NCBI GenBank assembly: GCA_963555995.3
Contig: OY821641.1
Coordinates: 2,624,001 to 2,688,000, forward strand
Direction of reading: 5' to 3'
From: Vicinamibacteria bacterium
Lineage (GTDB): Bacteria > Acidobacteriota > Vicinamibacteria > Marinacidobacterales > Marinacidobacteraceae
Length of the DNA stretch: 64,000 nt
Below, one piece after another: positions 10,720-31,300 of this stretch; within the stretch, counting starts at the first letter, position 1; every line of letters starts with the position of its first letter. The translations under genes were made by a program, and so were the position numbers. The notes under the pieces were generated by a model. The model had not been told where the DNA came from, ran no database searches, and saw only the letters and a program-made list of their open reading frames with translations.

Positions 10720-10736
10720 GACCTTTCCGGCAAGGA

Positions 10737-12436: not shown

Positions 12437-12540
12437 TCAACAGCGTCCAGACCTCACCTTCCGCGAGTGAGCCCCCGGAAGCGGGTTGCGCCCATCCGGT
12501 GGCTTCCGGCGGCAACCGGCCTGATTGACGTGAGATTCCC

Positions 12541-12939: not shown

Positions 12940-13159
12940 GGGGTTGTTCGCGGAAGGCGTCCATGTCGAAGGTCCCCTGCCCACGCTTCAGTTTGCTCCG
13001 GAGCGGGGCCAGCCGGTCCGGGTCAATGCGCCGGGGGCAGAGGAGGAAACCTTCGGGGGTCTCTTCGAGCAGGAGCCGGTCACCCGGCTGCGCGCCCAGG
13101 GCGTCGAGCACCCGCGCTGGAAAGGTGACCTGGCGTTTTGACGTGACTTTCACCAGCAT
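12917..13159 (-). CDS. AbrB/MazE/SpoVT antitoxin
   Basis: MLVKVTSKRQVTFPARV...LGAQPGDRL; overlaps the PIN gene. Confidence 0.85.
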   Translation of the reverse strand: MLVKVTSKRQVTFPARVLDALGAQPGDRLLLEETPEGFLLCPRRIDPDRLAPLRSKLKRGQGTFDMDAFREQPHDPSLRD

Positions 13160-13169
13160 CGAGATCACT

Positions 13170-13196
13170 CCTTACCCAGAATCTATCAGGGTAAGG
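13170..13196. promoter_or_regulatory. Inverted-repeat operator of the second TA module
   Basis: CCTTACCC-N11-GGGTAAGG just upstream of the antitoxin start. Confidence 0.6.
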
Positions 13197-13360
13197 CGCC
13201 CTCGAGGAGCCACGCGGTGCGTTTCGCCGAGCGATCCCGAACAGGGGTCCAATCGTCAGGGGACATGCAGCGACGTTCAGCGACCTCTCGGCAACACCTG
13301 ATCAACCAGGGATCAATTGAAAAAACTACGTTTTTTCAATGACTTATGCGTGGTTCGTTC

Positions 13361-13385
13361 TCTTATATCGTTTTTCGATCAAATA
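13361..13385 (+). repeat. 25-bp direct repeat, copy L, with an IHF-like box to its left (13334-13346)
   Basis: TCTTATATCGTTTTTCGATCAAATA; box TTTCAATGACTTA resembles WATCAANNNNTTR. Confidence 0.65.
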
Positions 13386-13409
13386 TGAGAGGTGACCGCG
13401 GGTCAACCG

Positions 13410-14906
13410 TCAGGACGACGGACCCCCGTTTCCGCTTTCCTGCGCCGCCCACCACGGGATGTACCGCATTGCCTTGCGTGAGGCTGCCGCGCTTTCGGGG
13501 GTGATCGCACCGCTCTTCACGGCGTTCCGAATGAGGCGGGAGGCCGTTGCACGGTTCTGGTCGGAGATGCCGAACCGCCGCCGCAGCGACGTGTTCGTGA
13601 GGGCGTCACCGTTCACGTACCGGAGGCACGCATGGAGGTAGCAGGCCCAGTTCCGGTCGTCCGCCCCCAGCTCCCCGAGTTTCTTCCGGGCGTGAAGGGT
13701 CACGCGAGTGAAGCCTCGCGGCTTCTGGAACCGGGGCGGCGGAAGCTCGTGCGCCTCGATTTCCTCGACCACCCGGTCTATGCCCATGCCCCGTTCCTCG
13801 CTGAAACCGAACCGGCGCATGAGCGAGGCGAGCCGGTCGTTGCGGGACTGCGGCGGCGCGTCCACCAGGCGCTCCGTCTCCACCAGCGGTTCGCCCGGAT
13901 TCGTGATCTCGATCCGGCCGTCGAAGATCTCGACCATCGGCCCCGCCCCGCGCACCGCAAGGTCCTGATGGATCAGCGCGTTGGCCACCAGTTCCCGCAC
14001 CGCGACCGGGGGAAACGTCCACTCGATTTCCCGTCGGACCCGGCCAATGACTTCCCGTGACGGCAACTGGCCGTCCAACTGCTGGTTCAGGCGGTCGAGG
14101 CAGCGTGCGTAACCGTCCTCGAACTCCCACTCCCGGGCCTCGCCGGTGCGCCCGGAGCCGCGGTAACGGATGAGCCGCACCGCCTTCCGGCCCAGCTCGG
14201 GAAAGTCCGCCAGCCGTCGCGCCAGCAGCACCGCTCCCAGGTTCGTAACGTCCCACCCTCCGGAAACCCCCGGACGGAGCAACCCGTCCATGGCGAGCAC
14301 CTTGAGGGCGGAGCGCCGATTCCCCGGCGCGGGCTGACGCAGCCGCTCGAAGTACGCGGGGTAATCGAGCAACTGCGCGACCTCTGCCTCGGGGAGGTTC
14401 TCCGCCGCGATACGGGCCTCGAACGGCGTCGCGTCGAAGACGCGCCAGAGCGCCCGTTCGTATTCCGGGAACCTGTCGAGCCGCCGGGTCTGGCTTTCGA
14501 TGCGGAGGAATCTCTCCCCTCCGAAGGCCACCGGCTGGGTCCGCGCAGGGCTGACCTGGAGGACGACGACGCGCTTGTGGTCCACCTCCACTTCGTGGAA
14601 TTCAAAGGGAACGGACGGCGTCAACTGCTGGAGCAGCCACGGGATCAGCGGCTCGCTCCCCTTCGTTTCCTTCCGGGGCTGGAACCGGGTCCCCACGATC
14701 GCATGGGTGCCGTCTTCCACCCCCCAGACCAGGTAGCCGGCGAGCTGGCCGCCAAGCGCCGCGCTGTTGGCGAGCGCCGAGATGCGCTGGCCGATCATCC
14801 TCGGCTCGTTCTGGTTGACCTTGAACTCCACCCACTCGTTCTCCGCCGGCAGTCTGCACAACTCCCGGACCCGCGCCACGATGGACGCGACCTCCCCGCC
14901 GGTCAT
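13410..14906 (-). CDS. AlbA_2 (Schlafen-like) + HATPase_c_4 + HTH ATP-binding protein
   Basis: ENEWVEFK, ISALAN, GYLVWGVED; AVRELVANALIHQD, IEITNPG, SRN..LA.LMRR, EERGMGID; C-terminal HTH. Confidence 0.88.
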   Translation of the reverse strand: MTGGEVASIVARVRELCRLPAENEWVEFKVNQNEPRMIGQRISALANSAALGGQLAGYLVWGVEDGTHAIVGTRFQPRKETKGSEPLIPWLLQQLTPSVPFEFHEVEVDHKRVVVLQVSPARTQPVAFGGERFLRIESQTRRLDRFPEYERALWRVFDATPFEARIAAENLPEAEVAQLLDYPAYFERLRQPAPGNRRSALKVLAMDGLLRPGVSGGWDVTNLGAVLLARRLADFPELGRKAVRLIRYRGSGRTGEAREWEFEDGYARCLDRLNQQLDGQLPSREVIGRVRREIEWTFPPVAVRELVANALIHQDLAVRGAGPMVEIFDGRIEITNPGEPLVETERLVDAPPQSRNDRLASLMRRFGFSEERGMGIDRVVEEIEAHELPPPRFQKPRGFTRVTLHARKKLGELGADDRNWACYLHACLRYVNGDALTNTSLRRRFGISDQNRATASRLIRNAVKSGAITPESAAASRKAMRYIPWWAAQESGNGGPSS

Positions 14907-15005
14907 CGTCCGACGCCTTCCGAGCCCGCCCGGCGTCCCGCCAAACCCGGTGCCCAGGCGATGGAACCCGAGGACTCCGGCGGGGTTGAAGAGCACATGG
15001 GCGCA

Positions 15006-15030
15006 TCTTATATCGCATTTCGATCAAATA
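15006..15030 (+). repeat. 25-bp direct repeat, copy R, with an IHF-like box to its right (15046-15058)
   Basis: TCTTATATCGCATTTCGATCAAATA (23/25 identical to copy L); box TTACAATGACTTA. Confidence 0.65.
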
Positions 15031-15135
15031 AAGTAACACAACTTTTTACAATGACTTAGCATAGATTCTGGATTACTGGAGCACTTCCCGATCAAGGAAA
15101 CCCACGCCGCCCACGGACGTGGTGCCGTGTGAGCA

Positions 15136-15160
15136 GGGAGCGCCGGTCTTCAGACCGGCA
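15136..15160 (+). repeat. REP-like palindrome (single)
   Basis: GGGAGCGCCGGTCTTCAGACCGGCA followed by a GCCCGCC-GTC-GGCGGGC hairpin. Confidence 0.8.
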
Positions 15161-15226
15161 TCGCCCGCCGTCGGCGGGCGAATGGCGCCGCCCCCCGCTC
15201 GAGACCCCGAATACGATTCGCGGTCC

Positions 15227-17239
15227 GTGTCCGACGATCCCCCCTATGCGCTGCCGAAAGATACGCGGGTCAAGGAATACAAGATCAAGCGAGTCCTCGG
15301 TAGGGGTGGGTTCGGGATCACTTATCTGGTTCACGACCTCAACCTGAAGGGCCCGGTAGCACTGAAGGAGTACTTCCCCGCTGAATACGCCCGACGTGTG
15401 CAAGACGGCTCGGTAAGGCCCATTTCGCCCGAGAGCCGGGCCAACTTCGATTGGGGCCGGAAGCGTTTCGTGGAGGAGGCGCAGACACTCCATCGGTTGC
15501 GGCATCCCAACGTGGTCCGCGTGCTCCAGTGTTTCGAAGCGCATGGCACGGCCTACATCGTGATGGAGCACATCAAGGGCAGGCCGCTGGAGAAGATTCT
15601 CGCTGAACGTGAGCGTCTTCCGGCAGCCGAATGGAAGTCACTGCTCGATCAGCTATTGAACGGGCTCGAGCATGTGCATGAGCACGGCTACCTCCACAGG
15701 GATGTCAAGCCGGGGAACATCATGATTCGTGACCACGGTGCCGAGCCAGTGTTCATTGATTTCGGCAGCGCTCGTGTAGACGCCCAGGATCCCCACACCA
15801 GGGTGCTAACGGAGGCATACGCCCCGCTGGAGCAAGGGATGGGAGAGAAGGAGGGGCCGCCGACCGATCTCTATTCACTCGCCGTCGTGTCGTACCGCGC
15901 GCTACTCGGCAAGCTGCCCCCCAAAGCGCAGAATCGCGCCGTTGAGGACACGATCGCTCGTCTGGAGCAGCGCGTGACCGGGGCAGAGCGCGCGTGGCTC
16001 GCTGCCCTCGATCAATGCCTGAACCTGTATCCCAGAGACCGCCCACAGTCGGTGGCAAACCTCCGGGAGATGCTGGCGAAACCGGCTGGCGCGTCGGACC
16101 GGATGGTCACGCCGCTCTGGGAGACGATCCGACATCCGGTACGTGCCGCACGAAGGCGGGCAGTGCGGAGATATGGCCAAGCGTTTGACCGCAAACTCGA
16201 GAAACACGGAAGCACGATATGGCTCATTGAGTACATGGGTTCGCCGTACGACGGGTGGAAAGTCATCAGGCGGGTAGAAGCTCTGGCGGGTGGAGAAATG
16301 AGCGCGGTCGTGTCCGAGCCCATGCACACCGGCGCCCGAGCTGGTAGGGACCCGCTCTTCGAAAGGCGAGTGGCCACGGAGGAGGAGGGGCTCGCGTGGC
16401 TCTATGAGTTGGAAACGAACGGCAGGATCGCGGAGGCAGCGCGGGAACGGATCGAGAGCTGGCGGAGCCCCAGGAACGAGGACAGCAATGGCAAGACCCT
16501 TTCCGGCGTTATCAGCGTGGATCTCCGCCTGATCCCGCTCCCGTCGTGGAATCGACGGAGTCCTGACGGTGGACCTTACGAATTCCCGACCGTAAACGGC
16601 GTCCGCGTGTGGGATCTCGGCATCCGAACTACAACGCTTCCACCAGTGGGCACCGATGGGGTAACCCGGTTCTCCGGGACCGTCACGGAGTCGCTCCCGT
16701 TGGTGTGGTGGGAAGTGGAGTGGTATCCGTACGGCGCACAGGACGGAAAGCCCCTGCCGTGGTATTTGCCGGGCTCTGTGGGATTCGCGACGTCCCTTGA
16801 GGTACGGAAGCACAAATCTGCCCGTCGCGCGCTACCGCCCAGCTTGGCAGAGAAGATCAGAGCGTGGGACGCCACGAATCACGAATTCGAGGCGATCTCG
16901 TTCAGGGTATCGGGCCAAGTATGGGCGCACGGGAAACACGCCCCGAGAACGTGGCAGCGCAAAAGCGCCCCCGGTGACGGTTGGTGGGTATTGGCAGCGG
17001 CGTTGCTGACGGCCGCGAGTTGCGTCACTCTGTGGGAGGGTGATCGGTGGGCGATCTTGCAGTTCCCTTCCATGCTCGGGGTCTGGATTCTGATCCTCTG
17101 GAAGAAGTTGTGGCGATTTGTTTCGTTTCATGGGAGTGGACTTGATTTCGGCAACGACCAGAGTGGGCTTGAAGGCGGCTGCGGCTGTCTTCTGGTCCTT
17201 GTGGCCTGTACGGTCGCTCCTTTCCTTCGGCACTGCTGA
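15227..17239 (+). CDS. Hanks-type Ser/Thr kinase with unknown C-terminal region and C-terminal TM helices
   Basis: LGRGGFGITY, VALKEY, HRDVKPGN, IDFGSAR, YAPLEQ, DLYSLA. GTG 15227 chosen because the upstream ORF extension is REP DNA. Confidence 0.88.
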   Translation: MSDDPPYALPKDTRVKEYKIKRVLGRGGFGITYLVHDLNLKGPVALKEYFPAEYARRVQDGSVRPISPESRANFDWGRKRFVEEAQTLHRLRHPNVVRVLQCFEAHGTAYIVMEHIKGRPLEKILAERERLPAAEWKSLLDQLLNGLEHVHEHGYLHRDVKPGNIMIRDHGAEPVFIDFGSARVDAQDPHTRVLTEAYAPLEQGMGEKEGPPTDLYSLAVVSYRALLGKLPPKAQNRAVEDTIARLEQRVTGAERAWLAALDQCLNLYPRDRPQSVANLREMLAKPAGASDRMVTPLWETIRHPVRAARRRAVRRYGQAFDRKLEKHGSTIWLIEYMGSPYDGWKVIRRVEALAGGEMSAVVSEPMHTGARAGRDPLFERRVATEEEGLAWLYELETNGRIAEAARERIESWRSPRNEDSNGKTLSGVISVDLRLIPLPSWNRRSPDGGPYEFPTVNGVRVWDLGIRTTTLPPVGTDGVTRFSGTVTESLPLVWWEVEWYPYGAQDGKPLPWYLPGSVGFATSLEVRKHKSARRALPPSLAEKIRAWDATNHEFEAISFRVSGQVWAHGKHAPRTWQRKSAPGDGWWVLAAALLTAASCVTLWEGDRWAILQFPSMLGVWILILWKKLWRFVSFHGSGLDFGNDQSGLEGGCGCLLVLVACTVAPFLRHC

Positions 17240-17327
17240 CGTGTCCCGCTTGCACCTCACCTCATCCCTGACGGCTCTTCGTCCTCCTCCACGCACCAAT
17301 ACGGTGCCCGGTCCATGTCACCGCACG

Positions 17328-18584
17328 GTGCAGTGCCTCACACTCGTTGTGGCGACGCTGGCCTCCTTGGGCTCCACACGCGTTCAAGCGCAGCCACAGA
17401 CTACCGAACCCGCCGTCGTTCGCGTCCTGTTCGCCACTGAGGACGGGTTCGGGGCCGGGTCGGGGTTCTTCGTGAACGACACGCACATCGTCACGAACGA
17501 GCACCTTGTTTCGCATCCCAGTTCAGCTCCCGAATTGTTCGTTTTGTTTGCCGGGCAGGACACCCCGGAACCGGTAGAACTCGACTGGTCGAACCCCGAA
17601 CTCGATCTGGCCGTGCTTGGCTACACCGGTGGCACCTCTCGCGGGGTGCTCGCACTCACCACGGCCGATCCCGCTCGCGGCGCGGAAGTGTTCGCGCTCG
17701 GCTATCCCGGGCCGGCCGATGCCGGCTCGCTTGGCGGGGCCGCGTCGAGCACGCTCACCGAGGGCATCCTGAGCAGGGCGCCGTTCGAGGCGCAGTGGGG
17801 GCGCGACGGAACCGCCTTCGCCCGTGTGCTCCAGCACAGCGCCGCCATCAATCCGGGGAGCAGCGGAGGCCCGCTCGTGAATGCCTGTGGCGCGGTCGTC
17901 GGCGTGAACACGAGCGGCGCTTTCAGCGAGCTGCGGGACGCCGACGGCAACCTCATCGGGACGAGCGCCGCTCAGGGCATCTTCTTCGCCCTGACGGCTT
18001 CGGAACTCCGCGCGGAACTTGGGCGGCGCGGAGTGGACTTTTCCCTTGCCGAAGAGTGCGAATCCGAGGCGGGCGCAGCGCCGTTTCTTCCCTTGTTCAT
18101 CGGCCTGCTTCTGGTTGCGTTGGTCGCAGCCGGCGCCTGGTTCGCGTATCGCCGCTCGCCCCCGGGCGCGGCGGGCACCCCTGTCGGCAGTAACGGGCCG
18201 CCCGCCAAACCCGCAGAGGGCGCGGGCGGACGCCCACCGGTCCACGATCCGCCGACCCCTCCGCCAACCACGGCGCGGTTCACCGGCCGATCCGGGACAC
18301 CGGACCTGTCCGTGCCGGCCCTGAAGGACGCCCGCCACGGCATCAGCATCGGCCGCAATCCTCGACTCGTGGACCGGCCGCTCTCCGACCCGACGCTCTC
18401 CCGCCGTCACTTCCGCGTCAGCCTCGATAACGGCCGCCTGTTCGTCGAGGACCTGGGCTCGACCCACGGCACCTTCGTCAACGGCGAGCGCCTGAAGCCG
18501 TACCATGCCCGCCGCCTCGAAAACGGCGATACCGTCCGCGCCGGAAAGGGAGAATGGCGGTTCACCGCTACGGAGTCCGATTGA
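17328..18584 (+). CDS. Trypsin-like serine protease - TM - FHA protein
   Basis: Signal-like N-terminus, GSGF, TNEH (His), DLAVL (Asp), INPGSSGGPL (Ser), TM LFIGLLLVALVAAGAWFAY, FHA (IGR, SRRH, DLGSTHGT). Start uncertain. Confidence 0.85.
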   Translation: MQCLTLVVATLASLGSTRVQAQPQTTEPAVVRVLFATEDGFGAGSGFFVNDTHIVTNEHLVSHPSSAPELFVLFAGQDTPEPVELDWSNPELDLAVLGYTGGTSRGVLALTTADPARGAEVFALGYPGPADAGSLGGAASSTLTEGILSRAPFEAQWGRDGTAFARVLQHSAAINPGSSGGPLVNACGAVVGVNTSGAFSELRDADGNLIGTSAAQGIFFALTASELRAELGRRGVDFSLAEECESEAGAAPFLPLFIGLLLVALVAAGAWFAYRRSPPGAAGTPVGSNGPPAKPAEGAGGRPPVHDPPTPPPTTARFTGRSGTPDLSVPALKDARHGISIGRNPRLVDRPLSDPTLSRRHFRVSLDNGRLFVEDLGSTHGTFVNGERLKPYHARRLENGDTVRAGKGEWRFTATESD

Positions 18585-18985
18585 AACTGAAGAAACATCG
18601 CGTGCTGATCGTCGGACGGGGCCGGCAGGCGGATATCCGGTTGGACCACCGGACCGTGTCACGCCTGCATCTGGAGCTGGTGTTGGGAGCGGGCGGCGAG
18701 ATTCACGTCGCGGATCGGTCGAGCCGGAACGGCACTCGCGTCCGGTCGGACGGAAAGTGGCAGGCCCTCACCGCGCAGTCCGTGTCCCCTGCGGACCGCC
18801 TGCAGCTCGGCGATCTGGAGACCACGGTAGAGGACCTGCTGCAGCGAGTGCCGGCGGAGCCTCCCGACACCGGCCGGCGCTCTGACGACGGCCCGGGCGG
18901 GCGGCCGGATGCCGCCCCGGACCCGGATCTCCCTTCCGGCCCGGTTCGCCGGAATCCCGAAACCGGCGAAGTGATCCGCGGCTGA
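18581..18985 (+). CDS. Small soluble FHA-domain protein
   Basis: TTG start overlapping the upstream TGA; IVGR, VSRLH, DRSSRNGT; tail ends PVRRNPETGEVIRG. Confidence 0.85.
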   Translation: MKLKKHRVLIVGRGRQADIRLDHRTVSRLHLELVLGAGGEIHVADRSSRNGTRVRSDGKWQALTAQSVSPADRLQLGDLETTVEDLLQRVPAEPPDTGRRSDDGPGGRPDAAPDPDLPSGPVRRNPETGEVIRG

Positions 18986-18990
18986 ACACG

Positions 18991-19755
18991 ATGGCGGACC
19001 CCGGCGAACTTCGCGACCGCCTGACGACGGCGGCGCCCGCCATCGGGCTCGGGTCGGCGTTCGTGGCCGTGTTGAGCCTGCTGCTGACCGAAGGCTGGGC
19101 CGCCGACTTCCTGCTCGACCGCAACTCGACAGTGTTCCCCTATCCGTTCACGATCCAGAACGTCATGTGGCTGCTCTTCTTCGGCGCCTTGGGAGAACTC
19201 TGGGTCCGCTTCCAGCGGAGCAGTCTCGAACGGGTCCAACTGCGGCAGAAACTCCTGCCGGAGGACGAGGAAACGATGCTGCGCATTCAGGACCTGGGCG
19301 CGGTCCGCGCGCGTTGCCGGGGGGAAGAGCGGTTCTTCGTTCAACGGCTCGTGTCCCGCTGCGTCCTCCAGTTCCAGAGCTCGAAATCCACCGAACGCGC
19401 CAACGCGCTCCTCGACTCGTCGCTCAACCTGATGCAGCACGAAGTGGACAACAAGTACGCGATCGTCCGCTATCTGGTGTGGGTCATCCCGACGATCGGC
19501 TTCATCGGCACCGTGGTGGGAATCGCCGCCGCGCTCAACAGCGCAGGCGCCGCCGAGGACTACCAGGACCCCGCGCTCCTCGGAGAACTGACCCGCGATC
19601 TGGGCGTCGCTTTCTACACTACGATGCTGGCGTTGATCCAGTCGGCATTGCTGGTTCTCGCCCAGAATCAGGTGCAGGCGCGCGAGGAGGGAGCGCTGAA
19701 CGAGGCGGGCCAGTACTGTCTCGACAACCTGATCAACCGACTCTACGAGAAGTGA
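18991..19755 (+). CDS. MotA/TolQ/ExbB proton-channel family protein
   Basis: Four hydrophobic segments; IPTIGFIGTVVGI and GVAFYTTMLAL match the ExbB/TolQ/MotA channel helices. Confidence 0.88.
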   Translation: MADPGELRDRLTTAAPAIGLGSAFVAVLSLLLTEGWAADFLLDRNSTVFPYPFTIQNVMWLLFFGALGELWVRFQRSSLERVQLRQKLLPEDEETMLRIQDLGAVRARCRGEERFFVQRLVSRCVLQFQSSKSTERANALLDSSLNLMQHEVDNKYAIVRYLVWVIPTIGFIGTVVGIAAALNSAGAAEDYQDPALLGELTRDLGVAFYTTMLALIQSALLVLAQNQVQAREEGALNEAGQYCLDNLINRLYEK

Positions 19756-19765
19756 GGCAGCGCCC

Positions 19766-20422
19766 ATGCCCGTGTATCGAACCCCCGATGGCCGGATCGT
19801 GGAGGAGCGGACCAAGCAGCGGCTGCTCGGGGGACGCCGGAAAACCACCGCTCCCGACAGCGAGCGGACCACGGTTGCGAACGCCGGGGACGAAGCCCCG
19901 CCGTCCCCGAATCCGCCGCGCCGCGGCTACGGTGATCCCACCGTGGTGCACGCGCCTCGTACCCGGGGTACCGGCGCCACGTCTCCCCCAGTAGCTCCCG
20001 ACAGGGAAACGACGCGGCTTCATGGAAGCATCGGTGGAAGCGCGACGGGCGTGGAGGGAGCGCCGCCCGTCGTGGACCCCGTGGCGGGGTGGCTCGTCGT
20101 GGTGGACGGCCCCGGAACCGGGACGGACCTGCGAATCGGCATCGGCCAGAACGTAGTTGGCCGCGATCCCGAGAACCGGATCGGACTCGCTTTCGGGGAC
20201 CGGAAGATCTCCCGCCGCGATCACCTCCGGGTCAACTACGACCATGAGCGCCGCGTGTTCTCGGTGGTGCCCGGGACCAGCGCGAACCTCGCGTATCTGA
20301 ACGGGACGGCGATCGAACAGCGCTCGGTCCTCGCGGCGGGCGACACGATCCGCATCGGACGCACCACGCTGCGCTTCGTCGCCTTCTGCGGAGACGACTT
20401 CAACTGGCCGGATGAGGACTGA
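19766..20422 (+). CDS. FHA-domain protein with Thr-rich disordered N-terminus
   Basis: PVAGWLVVVDGP, NVVGR, KISRRDH, N.AYLNG, GDTIRIG.T.LRFVAFC. Confidence 0.85.
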   Translation: MPVYRTPDGRIVEERTKQRLLGGRRKTTAPDSERTTVANAGDEAPPSPNPPRRGYGDPTVVHAPRTRGTGATSPPVAPDRETTRLHGSIGGSATGVEGAPPVVDPVAGWLVVVDGPGTGTDLRIGIGQNVVGRDPENRIGLAFGDRKISRRDHLRVNYDHERRVFSVVPGTSANLAYLNGTAIEQRSVLAAGDTIRIGRTTLRFVAFCGDDFNWPDED

Positions 20423-21542
20423 TCGCGGCGGCCCGGCACGGCTCGCTCGCGGAGCCAGCGCCGCTACGGCCCTCACCGTCCTGGCGGTCGGCTGCGGAAC
20501 CTCGGGGGTGGGTGCGGACCCGCCGTGGTTCCTCGTCGCGCTTGGGACGGCGGCGCTCCTGGCCTTGGCGGTGTTCGGGCTGGAATTCGCGTTCCGAGGT
20601 TTGCGGATGCGGCGCGCCGCGGTCGGCTCGCCGGGCTCGGGAATCCGCCACGCCCACGGCCAGTCCCTGGGCAAGCGGGAGCGACAGGAAGACGACCTCG
20701 GGCACATTGACGGCGACACCCTCGACCCGGAAGGCAACCATTCCGTCGTCCTGGTGGCGGACGGAATGGGCGGCCACGCCGCCGGCGAGGTGGCGAGCCG
20801 CGCCGCCGTCCGCGGCTTCGTGCAGGCGTACGGAACGCGGGGACCCGCCCCGAACCGCCTCCGGTCGGCGCTCGACCGGGCGAACGCGGCCATCGCCGAA
20901 GAGAGGGATCGGGACAGGGCGCTCTTCGGCATGGGAACCACCCTGGTCGCGGCGGCGGTGACCGAACAGGGACTCCACTGGATCAGCGTCGGCGATTCCC
21001 CGCTCTATCTCTTCCGCGCCGGACGGCTCGAACGGCTGAACGAGGACCATTCGATGCGGCCCGTGATCGCCCGCCTGCTGGAGGAAGATCCGGAAGCGGC
21101 GTCCAACTACAGCCCGAACCAGCTTCTTTCCGCGCTCATGGGCGGCCACATCGAGAAGACGGACGCCCCGGCGACGCCCCGACGACTCGAAGCCGGGGAC
21201 ATCGTTCTGGTAGCGACCGACGGCCTTGAGACCCTCGATGAGGAGGAGACGGAGGCCCTGATCGCGGAGCATCGCGGCGGAGGTCCGGACGCGGTCCGCG
21301 ACGCCCTGCTGCGAGCCGTCGAGGCGAAGGATCATCCCCGTCAGGACAACACGAGCCTGTTCGTGATCGAGGTCGAGCGGAGTTCGGTGAACGGCGGACC
21401 GTCAAGGGACCCGGGCGAGGCGGCGGCAGCGGAACCAGCCACGGAACCTCCGGGAGACGAGGCCGACGGGCGCTCGGCAGAGCCGCGCCCCGACGGACCG
21501 GCAGGCAGCGACGAAGGAGGCGGCGATGCGCGGGACGGGTAG
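20412..21542 (+). CDS. Membrane-anchored PP2C (PPM) Ser/Thr phosphatase
   Basis: Hydrophobic N-terminus; RERQED, VADGMGGHAAGEVAS, MGTTLV, VGDS, EDHS, ATDGL, DNTS. Confidence 0.92.
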   Translation: MRTDRGGPARLARGASAATALTVLAVGCGTSGVGADPPWFLVALGTAALLALAVFGLEFAFRGLRMRRAAVGSPGSGIRHAHGQSLGKRERQEDDLGHIDGDTLDPEGNHSVVLVADGMGGHAAGEVASRAAVRGFVQAYGTRGPAPNRLRSALDRANAAIAEERDRDRALFGMGTTLVAAAVTEQGLHWISVGDSPLYLFRAGRLERLNEDHSMRPVIARLLEEDPEAASNYSPNQLLSALMGGHIEKTDAPATPRRLEAGDIVLVATDGLETLDEEETEALIAEHRGGGPDAVRDALLRAVEAKDHPRQDNTSLFVIEVERSSVNGGPSRDPGEAAAAEPATEPPGDEADGRSAEPRPDGPAGSDEGGGDARDG

Positions 21543-22929
21543 CGCTGCCCTCGTGGCGGCCGTCGTTCTCTTGGGTTTTGCCGCACTGGTGCGAGCGCAG
21601 CCACCGGACCTCAGCGACGTCCGGGAACAGGTGGTCATCGTGCGGGCCTTCGATGCCATGGGGCGCGCGCTGGGCGACATCTCCGGTTTCGCGGTCGGCG
21701 GCGGGTTCGTGGCCACGAACGCCGCGCTGCTCGCCGGAGCGGAGGACGTGGTGATCGTTCTGCCGGAGACCCGCGACGAGTTTCCGGCCGCGGTGGCCGT
21801 TCTGGAACGGCGTTCGGGGGTGGCGGTCCTCCAGGCGGACGGCTTCGGAGCCGCGGGATTGCGCTTCGCCGCCCCGGAAGCGGAGCCGGCGCAGGGCCAG
21901 GGGCTCTACCTGCCCCGCTTCGCCTCCGACGGAACGCTGGACGCGGAAGCGGTTCGCGGTTCGATTTCCGAACTGCGGATCATCGAGCCGACGGCGGTGG
22001 GGGAGCGGGACGTGTTGCTCTACCGCCACAACGCTCCGGCGACGGCGCGCCAGTACGGGATGCCGCTGCTCAACGACTGCGGTGAGGCGGTCGGGCAGTT
22101 GCGCACCGACCCCGACATGTCGCGCACCACCCTGAACGCCCGGCCCGATCCGGGACCCGCCCCGTTCGCGGCAGCGGCGGTGGCGGTTCGCGACGTGCTC
22201 GCTGCGGCCGGGGCCGAACCGGGGCTCGCGGACGAGCCGTGCCTCGATCCGGTCGCCGCAGCGGAGGCGGCGCGGCGGGAGGCGGACGCGGCAGCGGCGC
22301 GGGCCGAGGCCGCCGCCGCGGAAGCGGCAACAGCCGGCGAGGAGCGTGACGCCGCCCGCGAGGAAGCCGAGGCTGCCCGGACGGCGGCGGAAGAGAGTCA
22401 GGCGGAGCGGGAGTCTGCGGAGGCCGAGGCGGAGCGCCTGGCGAGACAGCGCCGCTGGCTTGGGGCTGCGGTGATTCTCGGGATGGCGGTGGTCGTCGCC
22501 GTCATCTTTCTGCTCGCCCAGCGGCTCCGCCGCCGCCGTGAGGCGCTCGCCGCCTCGAAGAAGGAACTGGAAGGGGCCCTCCGCCCGGCCGCTTTCTCCT
22601 GTCTCCTCGACGGCGCCCACGAGAGCGGGCGGGGCTACGCGCTGAAGATCAGCGCCGAGCAGCTTGGTTCGCCCTCGGGGGTGGTCGTGGGGAGGAACCC
22701 CGCCCAGGCGGGAGCCTTGCTCGACCACCCGGAAGCCTCGCGCGAACACCTCCGGCTCACGGCGCGGGGTGACGAACTTGCCGTGACGGATCTCCACTCC
22801 ACGAACGGGACCTTCGTGAACGGCGAGCGGCTGGAAGCGGGAGCGGAGAGCCCAGTGGCGGACGGCGCCGAGATCGGCGTCGGATCGGCCATCACGCTGC
22901 GCCTGACGGTCCAGCGAACCGAAACATGA
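21526..22929 (+). CDS. Inactive trypsin-like domain - coiled coil - TM - FHA protein
   Basis: Signal peptide; ISGF, TNAA (no His), QYGMPLLNDCG (no Ser); Ala/Glu coiled coil; TM; FHA (VVGR, ASREH, DLHSTNGT). Confidence 0.8.
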   Translation: MRGTGSAALVAAVVLLGFAALVRAQPPDLSDVREQVVIVRAFDAMGRALGDISGFAVGGGFVATNAALLAGAEDVVIVLPETRDEFPAAVAVLERRSGVAVLQADGFGAAGLRFAAPEAEPAQGQGLYLPRFASDGTLDAEAVRGSISELRIIEPTAVGERDVLLYRHNAPATARQYGMPLLNDCGEAVGQLRTDPDMSRTTLNARPDPGPAPFAAAAVAVRDVLAAAGAEPGLADEPCLDPVAAAEAARREADAAAARAEAAAAEAATAGEERDAAREEAEAARTAAEESQAERESAEAEAERLARQRRWLGAAVILGMAVVVAVIFLLAQRLRRRREALAASKKELEGALRPAAFSCLLDGAHESGRGYALKISAEQLGSPSGVVVGRNPAQAGALLDHPEASREHLRLTARGDELAVTDLHSTNGTFVNGERLEAGAESPVADGAEIGVGSAITLRLTVQRTET

Positions 22930-23888
22930 GGCCGATCCGCCGCGAAGCGAGCATCTTCAGCGTCTCGGCGATTGATCTGTTCGCGTCGGCGCTCGGCGCC
23001 TTCGTGATCGTCTCCTTCGTCCTGTTCCCTTACTTCCCGAACACCGGTGAGGTGCCCCCGGCCCCGGTGGCTCCGCCGACGCCCCCGCCGCCGGTACCCG
23101 CGCCGCCGACCGGCATTTCGGCGGCGGAGGCAGCCGCCCTCGAAGCGCGGATCGCGGAGTTGGAAGGGGAACTCGGCGCCGCCCGGAGCCGGGAGTCGGA
23201 CCTGGGGGAGGAACTCGGCGACGCAAGGAGCCGGGAGTCCGAACTGTCGCGGGCTCTCGACGAGGCGACCTCCACGATCAGGAAGCTGCCGCCGCTCGAC
23301 CTGGTGATTGCGCTCGACACCACGAATAGCATGACGAACGAAGTCGTTGGGCTTCGCGAAGAGATCGCCGGTCTCGCGGAACTCCTCGTGGAGTTGACCG
23401 ATGACGCGGCGGTGGGCCTGATCGAGTTCAAGGACCGGTGCGATCCCGTGAACGCAGTGCGGGTTACCGGGCTGCGGCCGGTGAACCGTCAGACGGCACA
23501 GGAACTCGCCGTCTTCGCCCGATCCATGATCCCTGGCACGCCGTGCAATTTGACCGCGGACGAGGACTACGCCGAAGCCCTTCGCGCGGCGGTGCTGTCA
23601 GAGTGGCGACCCGTCTCGGAACGGCGATCCATCGTGCTGATCTCGGACAATCCCGCTCACGACGACATGCGCACTCAAGCAATCTCCGACGCGCGGGCTT
23701 TTGCAATGCGGCCGGGGGCTCGCCACACCGTCTCGTCGGTCTTTGTGGACACCAGCCCGAACCCGCGACACCCCGACACGGAGGACTTCATGCGTCAGGT
23801 GACGCAGGCCGGACGAGGCCGATTCGTCGAGGCCGACCGGAATGCGTCGTTATCGGTGACCATCCTCCTGGCGGTCTTCCGGAGCTGA
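22926..23888 (+). CDS. ExbD/MotB-like N-terminal TM(Asp) - Pro linker - coiled coil - vWA protein
   Basis: ATGA overlap; SIFSVSAIDLFASALGAFVIVSFVLF; vWA DLVIALDTTNSM (MIDAS-like), EDY, IVLISDNPAH. Confidence 0.82.
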   Translation: MRPIRREASIFSVSAIDLFASALGAFVIVSFVLFPYFPNTGEVPPAPVAPPTPPPPVPAPPTGISAAEAAALEARIAELEGELGAARSRESDLGEELGDARSRESELSRALDEATSTIRKLPPLDLVIALDTTNSMTNEVVGLREEIAGLAELLVELTDDAAVGLIEFKDRCDPVNAVRVTGLRPVNRQTAQELAVFARSMIPGTPCNLTADEDYAEALRAAVLSEWRPVSERRSIVLISDNPAHDDMRTQAISDARAFAMRPGARHTVSSVFVDTSPNPRHPDTEDFMRQVTQAGRGRFVEADRNASLSVTILLAVFRS

Positions 23889-23944
23889 AGAGACCACAAA
23901 CCACCAGTCGCATCCCTCCCCGCAGGTAAGACCCGAGCGCGACC

Positions 23945-26900
23945 ATGGCCCGTGAGTACCCCGACGCGCTCCCAGCGGGCTATCGGCTCGAGGAATTCAA
24001 GATCGTCCGCGTGCTCGGCCAAGGAGGCTTCGCGATCACCTATCTGGCGAAGGACAACTACCGGGATCAGGAGGTGGCCCTCAAGGAGTATTTCCCGGCC
24101 GGCAACGCCATGCGAACCGGCGGGACGCGTGTGGAGCCGACGCCGGGCGCCCGCGAGGTCTTCGACTGGGGATACCGACGCTTTCTCGATGAGGCGCGAG
24201 CGCAATCGAAGTTCCGCCATCCCAACATCCCGGTGCTCCATCGGTATTTCCGCGCCAACGGCACGGCCTATGTCGCCATGGATTACATCAAGGGACCTTC
24301 CCTTTCGGATCTTCTCGCTGATCGCGGCAGTCTCTCCGTGAACCAGTGGCGTCCATGGCTGGATCGTCTGCTCGACGCACTGGAACACGTACATGGCCAC
24401 GACTACCTGCACCGAGATATCACGCCTCGCAACATTTTGATCCGAGAGTCTGACAACCAGCCGGTTCTTATTGATTTCGGGGCCGCCCGGGTCGCTGGCG
24501 GCGACAAGACCCGAACGGTGGTCTTGACCAAGGCCTACGCCCCGCCAGAGCAAGGTTCAGCCCGCGCGAAGCAGGGACCCTACACGGACATCTATGCACT
24601 CGGAGCAGTGTCGTACTGCGTGCTCACCGGTGAGCTGCCAGCCACCCCGTCTGACCGGGCTGCTGGGGAGGAGCATGAGCCCCTCGCACAGCAACTGGAA
24701 GAGGCTTTCGACTGGGTCGTTGCCGTGGACCGGGCGCTCTGTCTGCGGCCGAAGGACCGTCCACAGAAAACCGCCGCGTGGCGGAAGGAACTGCACGAAG
24801 CAGCCGCGAAGATGTGGTTGTCGGGCGAGCCCGATCAGATAGCGGCCCGGGATGCCGAAGGACTGACGCCCCTCCACCGCGCCGCCGCGGCAGAGCCGGT
24901 TCCCGGCGTCGTGGCGACCTTGCTCGAACTCGGTGCCGACATCCACGCTGTGGCGGGAAGGGACGACGTCGTTCTCTTTGAAAGGCACGGCGACACGCCG
25001 CTACACCGGGCTGCGGCGGCCAATCCGAATCCGGACATAACGGCGGTTCTGCTAGACCGCGGTGCCGACGTTCGGGCGCAGGACCTGATAGGTGAACAGC
25101 CTCTCCACCACGCAGCGAGGCACAACTCCAATGCGAAAGAGATCGCTCTGCTGCTCGACCGCGGTGCCGACATCCACGCCAAGGACGACTCTGGTAGCGC
25201 GCCTCTACACGCGGCCGCCGAGGCCAATTCCCATCCAGGCGTGCTGACGCTCCTGCTTGACCGCGGCGCCGATATCCACGTCAGAAACCGGGATGGAGAA
25301 ACGCCGTTGCACCACGCTGGGGAGAACCCACACGCCGACGTCGTGACCCTTCTCCTCGACTTTGGCGCCGACCTGCACGCGCGGGATGCCAACGGGAATA
25401 CGCCGCTCCATGTCACGGCGTGGCATAACAGAAATCCGGAAACATTCAGGCTCCTGTTGAATCGCGGTGGCGACCTGCAGGCACGGAACAGTTCCGGCGC
25501 TACGCCCCTCCACTGCGCGGTGCGAGGGAGTCAGAGCAGCGAAGTGTTGGCCCTTCTTCTCGACCAGGGCGCCGACCCTCACGCAGTTGACGGCGAGGGG
25601 CGGACAGCCCTGCACTGGGCCGCATCGGAAGACGCCATGGAGACGGTGCAACTGCTCATTGAGCGCGGCGCGGACATCGAGGCGAAAGACTCCGATGGAC
25701 GTCGCCCGCTCCATCTCGCGGCGTCTGAGGACGCCTCCAGCGCGGCCGAATTGCTCCTCAGTCGCGACGCGTGCGTCCGAGCACGCGACCAAGGCGGGTG
25801 TACTCCACTTCACCGGGCCGCGGGCCGGGATTGCCTGCGGGTCTCACAACTGCTGCTCGACAACGGCGCAGACGTGGGAGGGCGGACTCCGACCGATACC
25901 CGAAACTGGACCTCGAAGCTGGATCTTGGTCGAGCGGCAGGTGAGGAGTTGGAGACGCTATGGTGGTTGGCCTTCGACAGCTACGATCCGACCACCAAGG
26001 TTCCGATCTCGATACATGACCCAGACTGGGCGCTGTGGTTCCTGGCATGTGACAACCACTGCGACATCACCGGCTGGGCAGAGACAACGCCTCTACACAC
26101 GGCGGCGCGAACCAATGGCCAGCGTGTGACCGCGCTGCTCCTTGACCGCGGCGCCGATCCAGCGGCCAGAGATTCCACCGGAAGGACACCGCTTCACGTG
26201 GCGGCCCTGAACAACGCCGTGGATGCCGCGAGACTTCTGATTCAGTCGTCTCCGCGCAGCTTGGGCGTCAAGGACACCGCCGGCAGGACACCGCTGCACT
26301 TTGCCGCCTGGGGCGATGCCAGAGAGACGGCGGAACTACTCCTCCGCCATCGTGCCGAGATCAAGTGCAGCGAGGAGACACGCGCCAAGACTTGGTTCTG
26401 GAAGGAGAGCCGCAGGCCCGCCGACATTGTGTGCCTCTTGCTCAGTGGTCCATTCGGCGAACCGGGAAGCGGCTGCCGCGAAGACGCGAAAGCGGTAAAG
26501 GGCTGGCACGACCTTCGGATGCTCACGGAACGACTCCTGCACAAGGGCCATACACCGTTGCATTGGGCTGCGTTCGGTGACTCTCGGGACGTAGCCGAAC
26601 TGCTTCTCGATAAAGGTGTGAATGTCCATGGAGGTGCGGATGACGGAATGACGCCCTTGGACCTGGCAGCGCTCGGCGACGCCTTGATCACCGCACGGCT
26701 GCTCATAGATTGCGGAGCGGATGTCTGCGGTCGGAAAGGTCATGCCACGCCACTGCATTGGGCCGCGCTTGGAAACAGCCGCGAAACTCTGGCACTACTG
26801 TTGGAACGCGGTGCTGATGTCGCAGTGGATATCGGTACAGCGAAGTCCGAAGGAATGACCGCTCTTTTCTGGGCGGTACTCGGAAAGGCTTCCCACGCTG

Positions 26901-29572
26901 CGGAGTTACTTCTGGAACACGGAGCAGAGCTCGGACAGGCCGTGGGTTATGGCCTCGTGTCGCGCCCCTGGATGGACTGGAAGGACGCGCGCGAGGGTGT
27001 TGAGGCACTCAGCGAGGAGTCGAATTCCACGCTGCTTCACTGGGCAGCACTGCGCGATGCCACGGACGTCGTGGACATGTTGCTTGACCGCGGCCTCGAT
27101 CCGGAGGCGGAAGACGCCGAGGGCCGGACGCCGCTGGACTACGCCGCCCAAGGTAACGCCGTCGGTGCGTTGGAGCGTCTTCTGGATCGCGGGGCCGACA
27201 CGAGTGGCAGTCGACGGACGAGCGGCACACCACTTCACAGCGCGTCCCGCGCCGATGCAGTGGACGCCGCGCATCTGTTACTGGAACGTGGATCGGATGT
27301 GCAGGCCGGCGAATCCGACATCGGCACGCCGCTCCACATGGTCCGTTCGACGGAGCTCGCGTCGCTTCTCCTCGATAGTGGGGCCGACGTTGACGCGCGA
27401 GACTCCAACGGAAGCACTCCACTTCACAGCGCCAACGGCAACCGAGCCGTCGCCGAGCAACTGCTTGAACGGGGTGCCGACATCGAAGCGACTGAAGGCT
27501 CTGGAAATACGCCGCTGCACCATGCCGCCGGGGCAGAGAAAGGAAGTGATGTTGCGGAAATCCTGCTCGATCGTGGCGCATCCATCAATGTACCGAACCA
27601 CAACGGAAATACCCCTCTGCACCTAGCCGCATCCGAGACCGGACACAACGATGCCGGAAAGGCGACTGTACTTTGCCTACTCAGGCGGGGTGCTGATGTC
27701 GACCTCGTCAACGCGGATGGCAAGACGCCGCTGATGGTTGCCATCGAAGGGTCCGAAGACTGGGAGGACGTGGTTCGGGATGTGGCAGCATGCTTCCTTG
27801 ACCACGGAGCGGACATCAATGCCCGTGACACACGTGGAAGTACGCCGCTCCACCTGGCGGCTCGATGTCGGTATTCGTCGGTGAGTGAGGAACTGACCTC
27901 GCTGCTCCTTGAGCGTGGTGCCGCCGTTGACGCTGCAGACAACGACGGTCGTACGGCGCTCCATGTTGCTGCAGGCACAGGGCATTCGCGGGTGTCGGCC
28001 GAGCTAATCCGTCGCGGAGCCGACGTCCACGCCCGGACGAAAGAGGGGGAGACGCCGCTGTACAGTGCCGCCGATGGAGCGGCGTGGGGACGATCCGCTG
28101 AGGCTGTGGAACTCCTTCTGGATGAGGAGGCGATGGTTCACGCGAGAACGGAGGACTGCTGGACCCCTCTTCACGCGGCGGCAAGTAGCGGAGCGAAGGA
28201 AGCAGTTGAACTGCTCCTGGATCGCGGAGCGGACTGCCAGAGCCAGACGCGATCCGGCGAGACGCCACTGCATCTGGCGGCGTATCTGCATCTTGTCCAG
28301 GAGTCGGACAATTCGCCCCCGACCGTCAGCAGGCAGCAACTCGAAGTTGTGCAACTGCTCTCGCGTGGGGGTTGCGAGTGGAATGTGAAGGATGAGAGTG
28401 GAGATACGCCACTGAGGTGCTATGTGAGGCAGTGGTGGAGATACAGGAATCGCATGCCCGACGGCCTTGACGGCATCGAATTCGTCCGGCGTTGCGGTGT
28501 GGATGATTCCGCCTTAGTCAATGCCGCCGTCGAGGACCTCGTTCGAGTAGCACCCGAGATGCGTAGCCGATCACTATCTGGCGATCCCGAGAACGCGTCC
28601 GAATCTCTGGACACCCGCACTTACGAGGATTCCAAGGCCACTGTTGATTTTCTTCTCGATCGCGGCGCCGACGTGAATGTACTCAACGCAGCCGGGCGCG
28701 CGCCGATCCACATCGCGGCGGCGGCGGGCGTACCGTCCGTCGTCGAATTCCTTCTGGACCGAGATGCGGAGGTCAACCGCCCCGATGCAAGCGGAAACAC
28801 GCCGCTTCACTCTTGGGCTGAGCAAGTCCTCCTGGATCGCGGTGCTGACGTGATGGCGCGCAATGCGGACGGCGAAACCCCGCTGCACTCGGCAGCGGGT
28901 CGTGATGACTATGTAGCGGCGGAGTTCCTGCTTCGCCATGGTGCAGATGTTGACGCGAGGGACAAGAACGCCGCGACGCCCCTGCATCGGGCCGCTTTCG
29001 AGAATTCGACGAGTGTCGCGGAACAGCTACTGGATCAGGGTGCCGACATCGCGGCCGAAGACCAGAGCGCTGAGACTCCGTTGCACGCCGCGATCCGCGG
29101 TGGCGCCTGGGAAACAGTCGAATTCCTACTGGAACGCGGGGCGGACCCGCAGTCCATCGAGGAGTACGAGTCGGAGGGTCTGGTGGAGACTGGGGCGTCG
29201 ATCGAGGACCGCATCTGTGCCGGGAAGATGCTCCGGATCAAGCGAATCGAGGAGGGCCTGTTTGATGCGCTATGGGAGGGGCTGGACGAACTCTCCCGCC
29301 GCAAGGGATGGGATGAAGGTATGCGCGTCTTTCGGCGGTTACATGAGTGTGTGGAAGACTGGGGCAGTGCGCGATACATGTTCGACTACCCAGAGGAGAA
29401 TCGCGGATTCGGCGCAAGTCTTGAAGGGCTGCTCCGGGAAGAGGGTGAGGAAGGACCGCTGATGCGCCAGCTTCGAGACAAAGCCGACTTCGAATGGCTC
29501 CGCGATCTGGTGTGGGAGCTCAGAGACGGCACGTTGCTGGACCCAGAGCGGTGGGTTGAACGGATGGACTGA
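23945..29572 (+). CDS. Ser/Thr kinase fused to ~36 ankyrin repeats
   Basis: LGQGGFAITY, VALKEY, HRDITPRN, IDFGAAR, YAPPEQ, DIYALG; then repeated G.TPLH.AA...LLD.GAD. Confidence 0.92.
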   Translation: MAREYPDALPAGYRLEEFKIVRVLGQGGFAITYLAKDNYRDQEVALKEYFPAGNAMRTGGTRVEPTPGAREVFDWGYRRFLDEARAQSKFRHPNIPVLHRYFRANGTAYVAMDYIKGPSLSDLLADRGSLSVNQWRPWLDRLLDALEHVHGHDYLHRDITPRNILIRESDNQPVLIDFGAARVAGGDKTRTVVLTKAYAPPEQGSARAKQGPYTDIYALGAVSYCVLTGELPATPSDRAAGEEHEPLAQQLEEAFDWVVAVDRALCLRPKDRPQKTAAWRKELHEAAAKMWLSGEPDQIAARDAEGLTPLHRAAAAEPVPGVVATLLELGADIHAVAGRDDVVLFERHGDTPLHRAAAANPNPDITAVLLDRGADVRAQDLIGEQPLHHAARHNSNAKEIALLLDRGADIHAKDDSGSAPLHAAAEANSHPGVLTLLLDRGADIHVRNRDGETPLHHAGENPHADVVTLLLDFGADLHARDANGNTPLHVTAWHNRNPETFRLLLNRGGDLQARNSSGATPLHCAVRGSQSSEVLALLLDQGADPHAVDGEGRTALHWAASEDAMETVQLLIERGADIEAKDSDGRRPLHLAASEDASSAAELLLSRDACVRARDQGGCTPLHRAAGRDCLRVSQLLLDNGADVGGRTPTDTRNWTSKLDLGRAAGEELETLWWLAFDSYDPTTKVPISIHDPDWALWFLACDNHCDITGWAETTPLHTAARTNGQRVTALLLDRGADPAARDSTGRTPLHVAALNNAVDAARLLIQSSPRSLGVKDTAGRTPLHFAAWGDARETAELLLRHRAEIKCSEETRAKTWFWKESRRPADIVCLLLSGPFGEPGSGCREDAKAVKGWHDLRMLTERLLHKGHTPLHWAAFGDSRDVAELLLDKGVNVHGGADDGMTPLDLAALGDALITARLLIDCGADVCGRKGHATPLHWAALGNSRETLALLLERGADVAVDIGTAKSEGMTALFWAVLGKASHAAELLLEHGAELGQAVGYGLVSRPWMDWKDAREGVEALSEESNSTLLHWAALRDATDVVDMLLDRGLDPEAEDAEGRTPLDYAAQGNAVGALERLLDRGADTSGSRRTSGTPLHSASRADAVDAAHLLLERGSDVQAGESDIGTPLHMVRSTELASLLLDSGADVDARDSNGSTPLHSANGNRAVAEQLLERGADIEATEGSGNTPLHHAAGAEKGSDVAEILLDRGASINVPNHNGNTPLHLAASETGHNDAGKATVLCLLRRGADVDLVNADGKTPLMVAIEGSEDWEDVVRDVAACFLDHGADINARDTRGSTPLHLAARCRYSSVSEELTSLLLERGAAVDAADNDGRTALHVAAGTGHSRVSAELIRRGADVHARTKEGETPLYSAADGAAWGRSAEAVELLLDEEAMVHARTEDCWTPLHAAASSGAKEAVELLLDRGADCQSQTRSGETPLHLAAYLHLVQESDNSPPTVSRQQLEVVQLLSRGGCEWNVKDESGDTPLRCYVRQWWRYRNRMPDGLDGIEFVRRCGVDDSALVNAAVEDLVRVAPEMRSRSLSGDPENASESLDTRTYEDSKATVDFLLDRGADVNVLNAAGRAPIHIAAAAGVPSVVEFLLDRDAEVNRPDASGNTPLHSWAEQVLLDRGADVMARNADGETPLHSAAGRDDYVAAEFLLRHGADVDARDKNAATPLHRAAFENSTSVAEQLLDQGADIAAEDQSAETPLHAAIRGGAWETVEFLLERGADPQSIEEYESEGLVETGASIEDRICAGKMLRIKRIEEGLFDALWEGLDELSRRKGWDEGMRVFRRLHECVEDWGSARYMFDYPEENRGFGASLEGLLREEGEEGPLMRQLRDKADFEWLRDLVWELRDGTLLDPERWVERMD

Positions 29573-29721
29573 TGGGACCGCAGGTGCGCGGTCCGCACGC
29601 TGGTGAGTCCTGCGTGTTTCGCCCGCCTGCGGCGGGCGGGTGCTGGCTGAAGTCGGCGTTCTGGGCCAGGGCTGCCGTGGGGCCGGTGGAGTCACGACGT
29701 GCGCGGCGCGGAGCGCCGCGC

Positions 29722-29865
29722 GTGCCGGTCTGGAGACCGGCGTTCCAAGCCGTTTCGCCATTTTCATGACCGGCGGGGTGTGCACGGCTACGGCGCCAGT
29801 GCGAACGGTGCATCGCGTGTTTCGCCCGCCTATGGCAGACGATGCCGGCCGGAGGCCGGCGCTCC
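29722..29865 (-). repeat. Two REP-like palindromes in minus orientation
   Basis: GTGCCGGTCTGGAGACCGGCGTTCC (29722-29746) and TGCCGGCCGGAGGCCGGCGCTCC (29843-29865). Confidence 0.8.
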
Positions 29866-29950
29866 GAGGCCTCCTGCTCCGTCTTGTCCGGGTTCGGCGA
29901 CACCGCGTCCACCCGCACCGTCCGGGAGCGAGCGCTGGAAGCAGGTTGCG

Positions 29951-31087: not shown

Positions 31088-31181
31088 GCGCCGAGCCTAC
31101 CGCAGGTTCCGGCGGCGAACCGGGCTCCGGGCGCCGCAGCGCCCCGCGACGGTGGAAGGTCCCCAGCGTCTTCAATGCGAG

Positions 31182-31235
31182 TTTTCTCCACTACCTGCCC
31201 GAGGTGGGAAAAAACCGACCCGTTTTACGTCTATG
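31182..31235 (+). promoter_or_regulatory. Second copy of the putative ECF-sigma promoter/operator
   Basis: TTTCTCCAC...GGTGGGAAA-AAACCGACC...CGTCTATG; GGGAAA-N16-CGTCTA. Confidence 0.5.
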
Positions 31236-31300
31236 CATGGTGAGGGCGCCCAGATGGTGGCGCTCCGAACACCGGCATAGACTCCGAGGAGGGCCGAGCC

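Follow-up and report, generated by a model that had tools for sequence, protein, structure and literature searches.

A MotA-like protein and a helix-vWA protein in a kinase-, phosphatase- and FHA-containing gene cluster of an acidobacterial genome: a candidate ion motor of the predicted transpore-helix vWA class

Ion motors of the 5:2 type are known to serve flagella, nutrient import, outer-membrane constriction, gliding and Zorya defence, and we know of none that is wired to a dedicated kinase-phosphatase-FHA switch. Among described systems, vWA proteins with an Asp-bearing transpore helix (TPH) have been predicted to act as the dimer of TolQ-like pentamers, and AlphaFold 3 models place such helices inside these pentamers (Williams-Jones et al. 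2025, PMC12204202). According to the main text of that paper, the TPH-vWA motors combine a tolQ-like gene lacking an accompanying tolR or exbD, a vWA protein with an N-terminal Asp-bearing helix and a threonine ring in the A subunit, and these features are shared by a nine-gene cluster at 15119-29572 of the 64,000-nucleotide stretch of contig OY821641.1 analysed here (the window), which derives from a genome of the class Vicinamibacteria. The core motor idea is therefore already in print and is not new. The published motors, seeded from Idiomarina, predominantly contain heterologous vWA pairs, whereas the source genome of the window has a single TPH gene; its integrin-beta-like head, exchangeable for a DUF2135/TerD-like one, and a full phospho-module with proteases go beyond the published description, whose main text contains no kinase and no trypsin and a single occurrence of "FHA", in the name FhaC. 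The cluster can be placed in the predicted TPH-vWA class, as a variant wired to kinases, with family identity inferred from the description in that paper. No description of the cluster was found in Creative Commons-licensed PubMed Central articles or in bioRxiv, and the main text of PMC7159879 mentions neither MotA nor ExbB.

The helix-vWA protein, encoded at 22926-23888 (+, 320 aa; MRPIRREASIFSVSAIDLFASALGAF), is very probably the B subunit of a 5:2 motor formed with the MotA-like protein encoded at 18991-19755, as judged from sequence features and gene context. In the AlphaFold 2 model (pLDDT 86), a helix (residues 11-36) is followed by an extended Pro-rich segment (40-65), a second helix (66-117) and an alpha/beta domain (124-318), and the single hydrophobic segment lies at 16-34. 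All features of the architecture read from the letters in the original prediction, namely a basic N-terminus, one transmembrane (TM) helix with an Asp, a Pro linker, a coiled coil and a vWA domain, are present. The expected conservation of the Asp was also borne out, in that Asp17 is kept in 103 of the 103 homologues retaining the N-terminal motif (120 homologues were listed, 17 of them without the N-terminal stretch; counts throughout include kin, so members are not independent). A profile search with the helix gave 1096 matches (clusters at 50% identity), and 149 of the top 150 have Asp at the motif. The N-terminal flank is net positive in 87/87 helices and exceeds the C-terminal flank in 85 of them, and C172 and C207 are both present in 82, both absent in 20 and split in only 1 of the 103 homologues; because of this charge bias and of a Cys pair gained and lost together, the head is predicted to be periplasmic. 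A cleaved signal peptide at the N-terminus was considered and rejected on sequence grounds, in agreement with the original prediction, since the helix is near-invariant, contains the Asp and runs into an invariant PYFPN. A search for longer fused forms of the vWA protein gave 1 unrelated vWA match among 7994 candidates, which is weak evidence of absence.

The pairing of this protein with the MotA-like subunit is supported by its genomic distribution. The window contains no ExbD or MotB_plug match. The source genome (3.8 Mb, 93% complete) carries three MotA/ExbB genes and three ExbD matches, which adjoin the other two ExbB/TolQ genes, and it has no MotB_plug match, so the earlier statement that canonical exbD and motB are missing beside motA holds. 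Across 25 genomes of the family, the cluster MotA clade and the helix occur together in the same 5, and neither occurs in the other 20. Furthermore, 80 metagenome loci were chosen by MotA, of which 62 include downstream DNA and 18 are well flanked (at least 4 kb on each side). The helix gene is immediately 3' of motA in 21 of the 62 and present in 17 of the 18, and it is paired in 7 of these 18, compared with one copy in the source genome; ExbD profile matches occur in just 2 of the 80 loci, at least 6 kb from the helix genes.

The A subunit (254 aa) matches the MotA_ExbB profile with a score of 47.3 bits against a curated cut-off of 22.9, and the best solved-structure match of its profile is PomA (E 0.06). 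Residues P167, T174, T210 and T211 align with PomA P151, T158, T185 and T186; P167, T174 and T210 are invariant in 69 of 69 A subunits and T211 is kept in at least 90%. These threonine counts come solely from the 69-sequence set, because the threonines are among the MotA motifs by which the metagenome loci were chosen. PomA T158, T185 and T186 are reported to be conserved in all Na+ stators, two of them being Ala in H+ stators (PMC10374538). All three sodium-site threonines are kept in the A subunit, unlike in the ExbB/TolQ proteins of the same genome, which have Ala at the T185-equivalent site (Ser in the sister family described below) and carry a TM Glu where the A subunit has Val. Because the triad is complete, the coupling ion may perhaps be Na+, which is a lead and not proof. 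The proposal of a B-subunit analogue with a conserved TM Asp is thus upheld by co-occurrence, adjacency, the threonine ring and the charge bias.

The head of the helix-vWA protein matches Pfam VWA_2 with an E of 5.6e-5 (24 bits, slightly below the 27-bit cut-off), and the best Foldseek matches are the BatB vWA domain (E 4e-10) and integrin beta subunits. The residues of the metal ion-dependent adhesion site (MIDAS), whose roles we take to be those in the integrin beta I-like domain, are conserved as D131 (103/103), T/S133 (103/103), S135 (103/103), E213 (102/103) and D241 (103/103); D170, N208 and the C172/C207 pair are further residues listed for the head. As distal ligand the head has a Glu, which lies in an N-x4-E loop; this loop is followed by WR and aligns with the integrin beta I-like domain, with which the head also shares the DxxxS first loop, the F-x-D strand end and the closing D (E 9e-4 to 0.04 against integrin beta-3, -6 and -8). 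Unlike the integrin domain, the head is bacterial, C-terminal and placed on a motor helix, and BatB-type vWA domains score equal to or above the integrin domain. The head thus has an intact Glu-type, integrin-beta-like MIDAS and is predicted to bind metal, in line with the MIDAS-bearing head that had been proposed from the letters.

Profile comparison does link the helix to a sister family, whose SFLDxxxCGFGA helices it matches with a probability of 96%. In that family, a kinase gene lies upstream of a tolQ-like gene (30% identity), and an FHA-bearing gene and two vWA genes lie downstream of it. Sister loci L030-L034, from order-level relatives, comprise a kinase, a PEGA/FGE-sulfatase membrane protein, a tolQ-like gene and two SFLDxxxCGFGA helix-vWA genes, and they also encode a 465-aa protein with a C-terminal FHA domain and an N-terminal part that by eye is actin/Hsp70-like.

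Several observations weigh against the motor assignment. The comparison with ExbD and MotB that had been suggested as a check gave hhalign values of 0.32% and 0.58%, respectively, within the 0.08-1.9% of decoy TM profiles (the ExbD and MotB helix profiles comprised 24 and 15 sequences of one phylum, with one unpublished genome's locus excluded), so homology of the cluster helix to these proteins was undetected. The sole feature common to the cluster, ExbD and MotB helices is the D-x8-F spacing; Phe at Asp+9 occurs in 74/74 cluster, 23/24 ExbD/TolR and 15/15 MotB helices, but in 0/9 sister-family helices, and this residue is therefore not universal. L18, F19, A20, A22, G24 and F26 are as invariant as Asp17 in the 103 homologues; the entire helix is invariant, and Asp conservation alone does not single out Asp17. 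Moreover, the well-flanked locus L072 has motA with no helix gene nearby, and the window cluster contains no outer-membrane or peptidoglycan-binding partner. The Na+ assignment is weak because ExbB and TolQ keep two of the three threonines and yet use H+.

With ExbB-ExbD-TonB and TolQ-TolR-TolA, the cluster shares a PF01618 A subunit with the pore Pro and Thr residues and a B subunit with a short basic N-terminal tail, the D-x8-F helix and a periplasmic head, but it lacks any PF02472 match, helix profile similarity or TonB/TolA match. The equivalents of the three PomA threonines link it to MotAB/PomAB, whereas the helix-vWA protein, unlike the B subunits of MotAB, PomAB and ZorAB, has no MotB plug and no OmpA/peptidoglycan-binding domain; unlike in Zorya, there is no ZorA tail and no ZorC, ZorD or ZorE match. 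The Myxococcus AglRQS-Glt machinery likewise unites a TolQ-like motor, a side partner with a TM segment and an FHA domain (GltG) and a vWA protein (CglB), although, as far as the cited account goes, its vWA protein is a surface adhesin and its B subunits are TolR-like (PMC11761067). Only the FHA domains of the cluster match GltG, and no outer-membrane Glt match is found in it. We infer that the helix-vWA protein is an ExbBD/MotAB-type motor part that does not belong to ExbD/TolR or MotB.

The nine genes of the cluster lie on one strand, beginning with a kinase and ending with a kinase-ankyrin gene, in the following order:

15119-17239 (+): Hanks-type Ser/Thr kinase with C-terminal hydrophobic segment(s) at 684-702; catalytic motifs present (Pkinase E 1e-36)
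17118-18584 (+): signal peptide, intact trypsin-like protease, TM segment (320-338) and predicted cytoplasmic FHA domain (Trypsin_2 E 8e-23, FHA E 6e-19)
18554-18985 (+): small FHA adaptor with a conserved C-terminal RRNPETGEVI tail, immediately 5' of motA (FHA E 4e-10)
18991-19755 (+): MotA/TolQ/ExbB-family A subunit, 254 aa (PF01618 E 2e-12)
19766-20422 (+): FHA adaptor with a conserved N-terminal MPVYRTPDGRIVEERT and a Thr-rich low-complexity linker (FHA E 2e-8)
20412-21542 (+): PP2C Ser/Thr phosphatase with an N-terminal hydrophobic segment at 39-57 (Stp1_PP2C E 8e-35)
21526-22929 (+): signal peptide, dead trypsin fold, Ala/Glu-rich helical stalk, TM segment and FHA domain (Trypsin_2 E 4e-7, FHA E 2e-13)
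22926-23888 (+): transpore-helix protein with helix, Pro linker, coiled coil and integrin-beta-I-like vWA domain; predicted B subunit (AlphaFold 2 model, Foldseek, homologue alignment)
23945-29572 (+): Ser/Thr kinase fused to about 30 ankyrin repeats, with no hydrophobic segment found (Pkinase E 2e-33; Ank in 33 stretches)

Intergenic gaps range from -17 to +10 bases from the first FHA gene through the vWA gene, a tight spacing as in an operon; a promoter scan of 14500-30500 found none, and terminators there were at chance level. The region 17100-24000 is covered by contigs of three public runs with no differences listed, all from one study that is possibly the source of the sequence; no RNA data set was listed as carrying the region. 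The system is real and well conserved. The nearest locus is one from Candidatus Marinacidobacterium (Acidobacteriota), and the cluster recurs across Acidobacteriota, Pseudomonadota, Binatota and Latescibacterota, although within the genus it was found in only 1 of 15 other genomes. Because of this patchy presence and its island-like neighbours, it appears to be accessory. The island-like flanks (10061-14996 and 29951-31921) contain PIN-like toxin-antitoxin genes (by eye), a gene with AAA and PD-(D/E)XK domains, a Schlafen-AlbA/RecG-C gene and an AAA ATPase gene. The island is bracketed by two genes for large exported proteins that are related to each other and, by eye, carry Ig-like and LVIVD-like repeats; they lie at 6040-8364 (-) and at 31974-34349 (a + open reading frame antisense to a similar gene).

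The two trypsin-like proteins form a live and dead pair. In the first, the triad H129, D163 and S249 (numbered from 17118) is intact, the true start of the gene being likely GTG 17328, whereas the second is catalytically dead, with Ala67 at the His site and Tyr177 at the Ser site. Elsewhere, proteins with a TM segment and an FHA domain (TM-FHA proteins) carry thermolysin M4, vWA or peptidoglycan-binding heads. In L055 and L078, thermolysin M4 peptidase-FHA proteins, a second tethered protease type, occur with their own PP2C gene beside the cluster, and akin long FHA genes are found in L057, L079, L082 and L104. The head on the transpore helix is also exchangeable. Of 90 helix genes in the loci, 48 have the cluster-type vWA head, 27 an alternative head and 15 match neither profile, and 103 long library matches divide into 62 with the cluster-type vWA head, 31 with the alternative head and 10 others, most of which look by eye like a second vWA subtype. 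The alternative head resembles DUF2135 and is predicted to form a beta-sandwich (pLDDT 97) nearest to TerD homologues (TM-score 0.69-0.70, E 6e-4), which suggests a TerD-like fold for DUF2135. TerD binds Ca2+, and since the vWA head has a MIDAS, a divalent-metal site may be a trait common to the heads. In the MotA tree (63 rows, excluding loci without a helix gene, hence the sister loci, as well as duplicates and short matches), vWA and DUF2135 heads are interleaved. L009:10364-10735 is an example of an alternative-head gene, and the 26 other such genes of the loci carry a DUF2135/YfaP-like head; in L003 (5503-6318), such a gene is split by a stop inside the head, with an intact vWA-headed copy 4 kb away.

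Kinases and FHA proteins are the constant partners of the motor genes. A small FHA gene lies directly 5' of motA in 62 of 68 metagenome loci, and among the well-flanked metagenome loci 16 of 18 have a kinase and 11 of 18 a PP2C gene. The sensor ends of the kinases differ widely and include ankyrin, Sel1, FGE-sulfatase, WD40, PEGA and beta-helix forms. The conserved short tails of both FHA adaptors share the pattern R-x-x-x-x-G-x-I and are likely docking motifs; they lie at 18930-18985 (RRNPETGEVI) and 19766-19813 (YRTPDGRIVEE) and have a hairpin-like pattern common across phyla. Reverse transcriptase genes adjoin cluster kinases at L008:2611-3810, where the kinase is FGE-sulfatase-ended, and at L016:13352-14434, and recall diversity-generating retroelements. 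The TM segment and adjacent FHA domain of GltG were modelled on the AglR pentamer in the cited account (PMC11761067), so that there is a precedent for a TolQ-like ring with TM-FHA proteins at its side.

From directly established parts (gene content and order, the invariant Asp17, the MotA Thr/Pro set, the vWA fold with its MIDAS, the live and dead protease pair and co-occurrence), it is fairly probable that the MotA-like and helix-vWA proteins form a 5:2 inner-membrane ion motor, with the neighbouring kinases, phosphatase and FHA proteins turning it on and off. The MotA pentamer would be plugged by the helices of two vWA proteins, whose heads would reach into the periplasm, almost certainly with the N-terminus inside and the head outside, and Asp17 of the inserted helix very likely relays ions against T174, T210 and T211. 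A receptor kinase with a variable sensor would probably phosphorylate Thr sites of the FHA adaptors, upon which proteins with exchangeable heads, a TM segment and an FHA domain, in this cluster the proteases, could dock on the pentamer in the way modelled for GltG on AglR, and PP2C would reverse this step. Tentatively, the pentamer might then be clamped and the dimer turn, with the metal-loaded head gripping some periplasmic protein or part of the envelope by an acidic residue and pulling or twisting it beside the tethered protease. The trypsins would be exchangeable accessories and not an obligatory MIDAS ligand. The most specific version, a sodium-driven 5:2 rotary motor with an integrin-beta-like head that is gated by receptor kinases and draws periplasmic proteins into tethered proteases, is unlikely to apply in full.

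A quite unlikely alternative is that the motor acts directly on the tethered trypsins, the MIDAS binding one of the two proteases, dead or live, through an acidic residue, and rotation unmasking the live enzyme; the original prediction had also named the trypsin domains as a possible ligand. The dead-trypsin gene shares its last 4 bases (ATGA) with the helix-vWA gene, the same gene order is seen in the close loci L001, L002, L004, L027 and L028, trypsin matches occur in 13 of 14 well-flanked genome loci, and proteases recur as TM-FHA heads (trypsin, thermolysin M4). However, only 8 of the 18 well-flanked metagenome loci have a trypsin match and 10 have none, a 25-row part of the MotA tree is without one in the available DNA (some contigs being short), and the same dead and live pair accompanies vWA or DUF2135 heads alike, the vWA head being swapped for the DUF2135/TerD-like one in 27 of 90 helix genes. 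The stalk lengths of head and proteases also do not co-vary (rho 0.23, n = 13, for the dead protease; 0.43, p 0.07, n = 19, for the live one). Because trypsins are not required, heads swap and stalks do not co-vary, the trypsin-ligand idea is possible but unsupported.

A defence role is a live rival, although an improbable one as we judge it: in a Zorya-like anti-phage or anti-predator sensor, the head would be anchored in the periplasm, envelope damage would unplug the channel, the pentamer would turn and the kinase-FHA chain would carry the downstream signal. The patchy occurrence within the genus, the neighbouring AAA/PD-(D/E)XK nuclease, Schlafen-AlbA/RecG-C and PIN-like toxin-antitoxin genes, the hypervariable kinase sensors, the reverse transcriptases near them in L008 and L016 and a weak ZorA similarity of the A subunit (E 4e-7, over TM2-3 only) are consistent with such a role. 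Yet the 254-aa A subunit is without the long ZorA tail, the B head is without an OmpA/peptidoglycan-binding domain, clustering of the neighbour open reading frames shows no recurring nuclease or other killing effector, and the kinases are laid out as receptors upstream of the FHA proteins. A reading without a working motor is very unlikely; in it, the vWA protein would serve a Ter/TerY-P-like kinase-phosphatase module as its metal sensor or as a scaffold anchored in the membrane, with MotA as a gated channel or scaffold. In favour of this reading, Ter stress systems are built from vWA, TerD-like, PP2C and kinase domains, the alternative head folds like TerD homologues, and the helix lacks ExbD/MotB homology, but a buried invariant Asp in an apolar helix, an intact threonine ring and strict co-occurrence are hard to explain without ion coupling.

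If the 5:2 motor reading is true, the cluster would be an accessory machine for envelope surveillance or remodelling, and if its most specific version also held, it would be a mechanical protease station of the periplasm that draws its power from ions and is controlled by phosphorylation. The cluster offers a compact nine-gene system for testing vWA-headed motors, which were only predicted in 2025, and the head swap, in which two vWA subtypes or a DUF2135/TerD-like domain stand on the same helix, together with the PomA-like threonine triad, allows sharp tests of the role of the head and the choice of ion.

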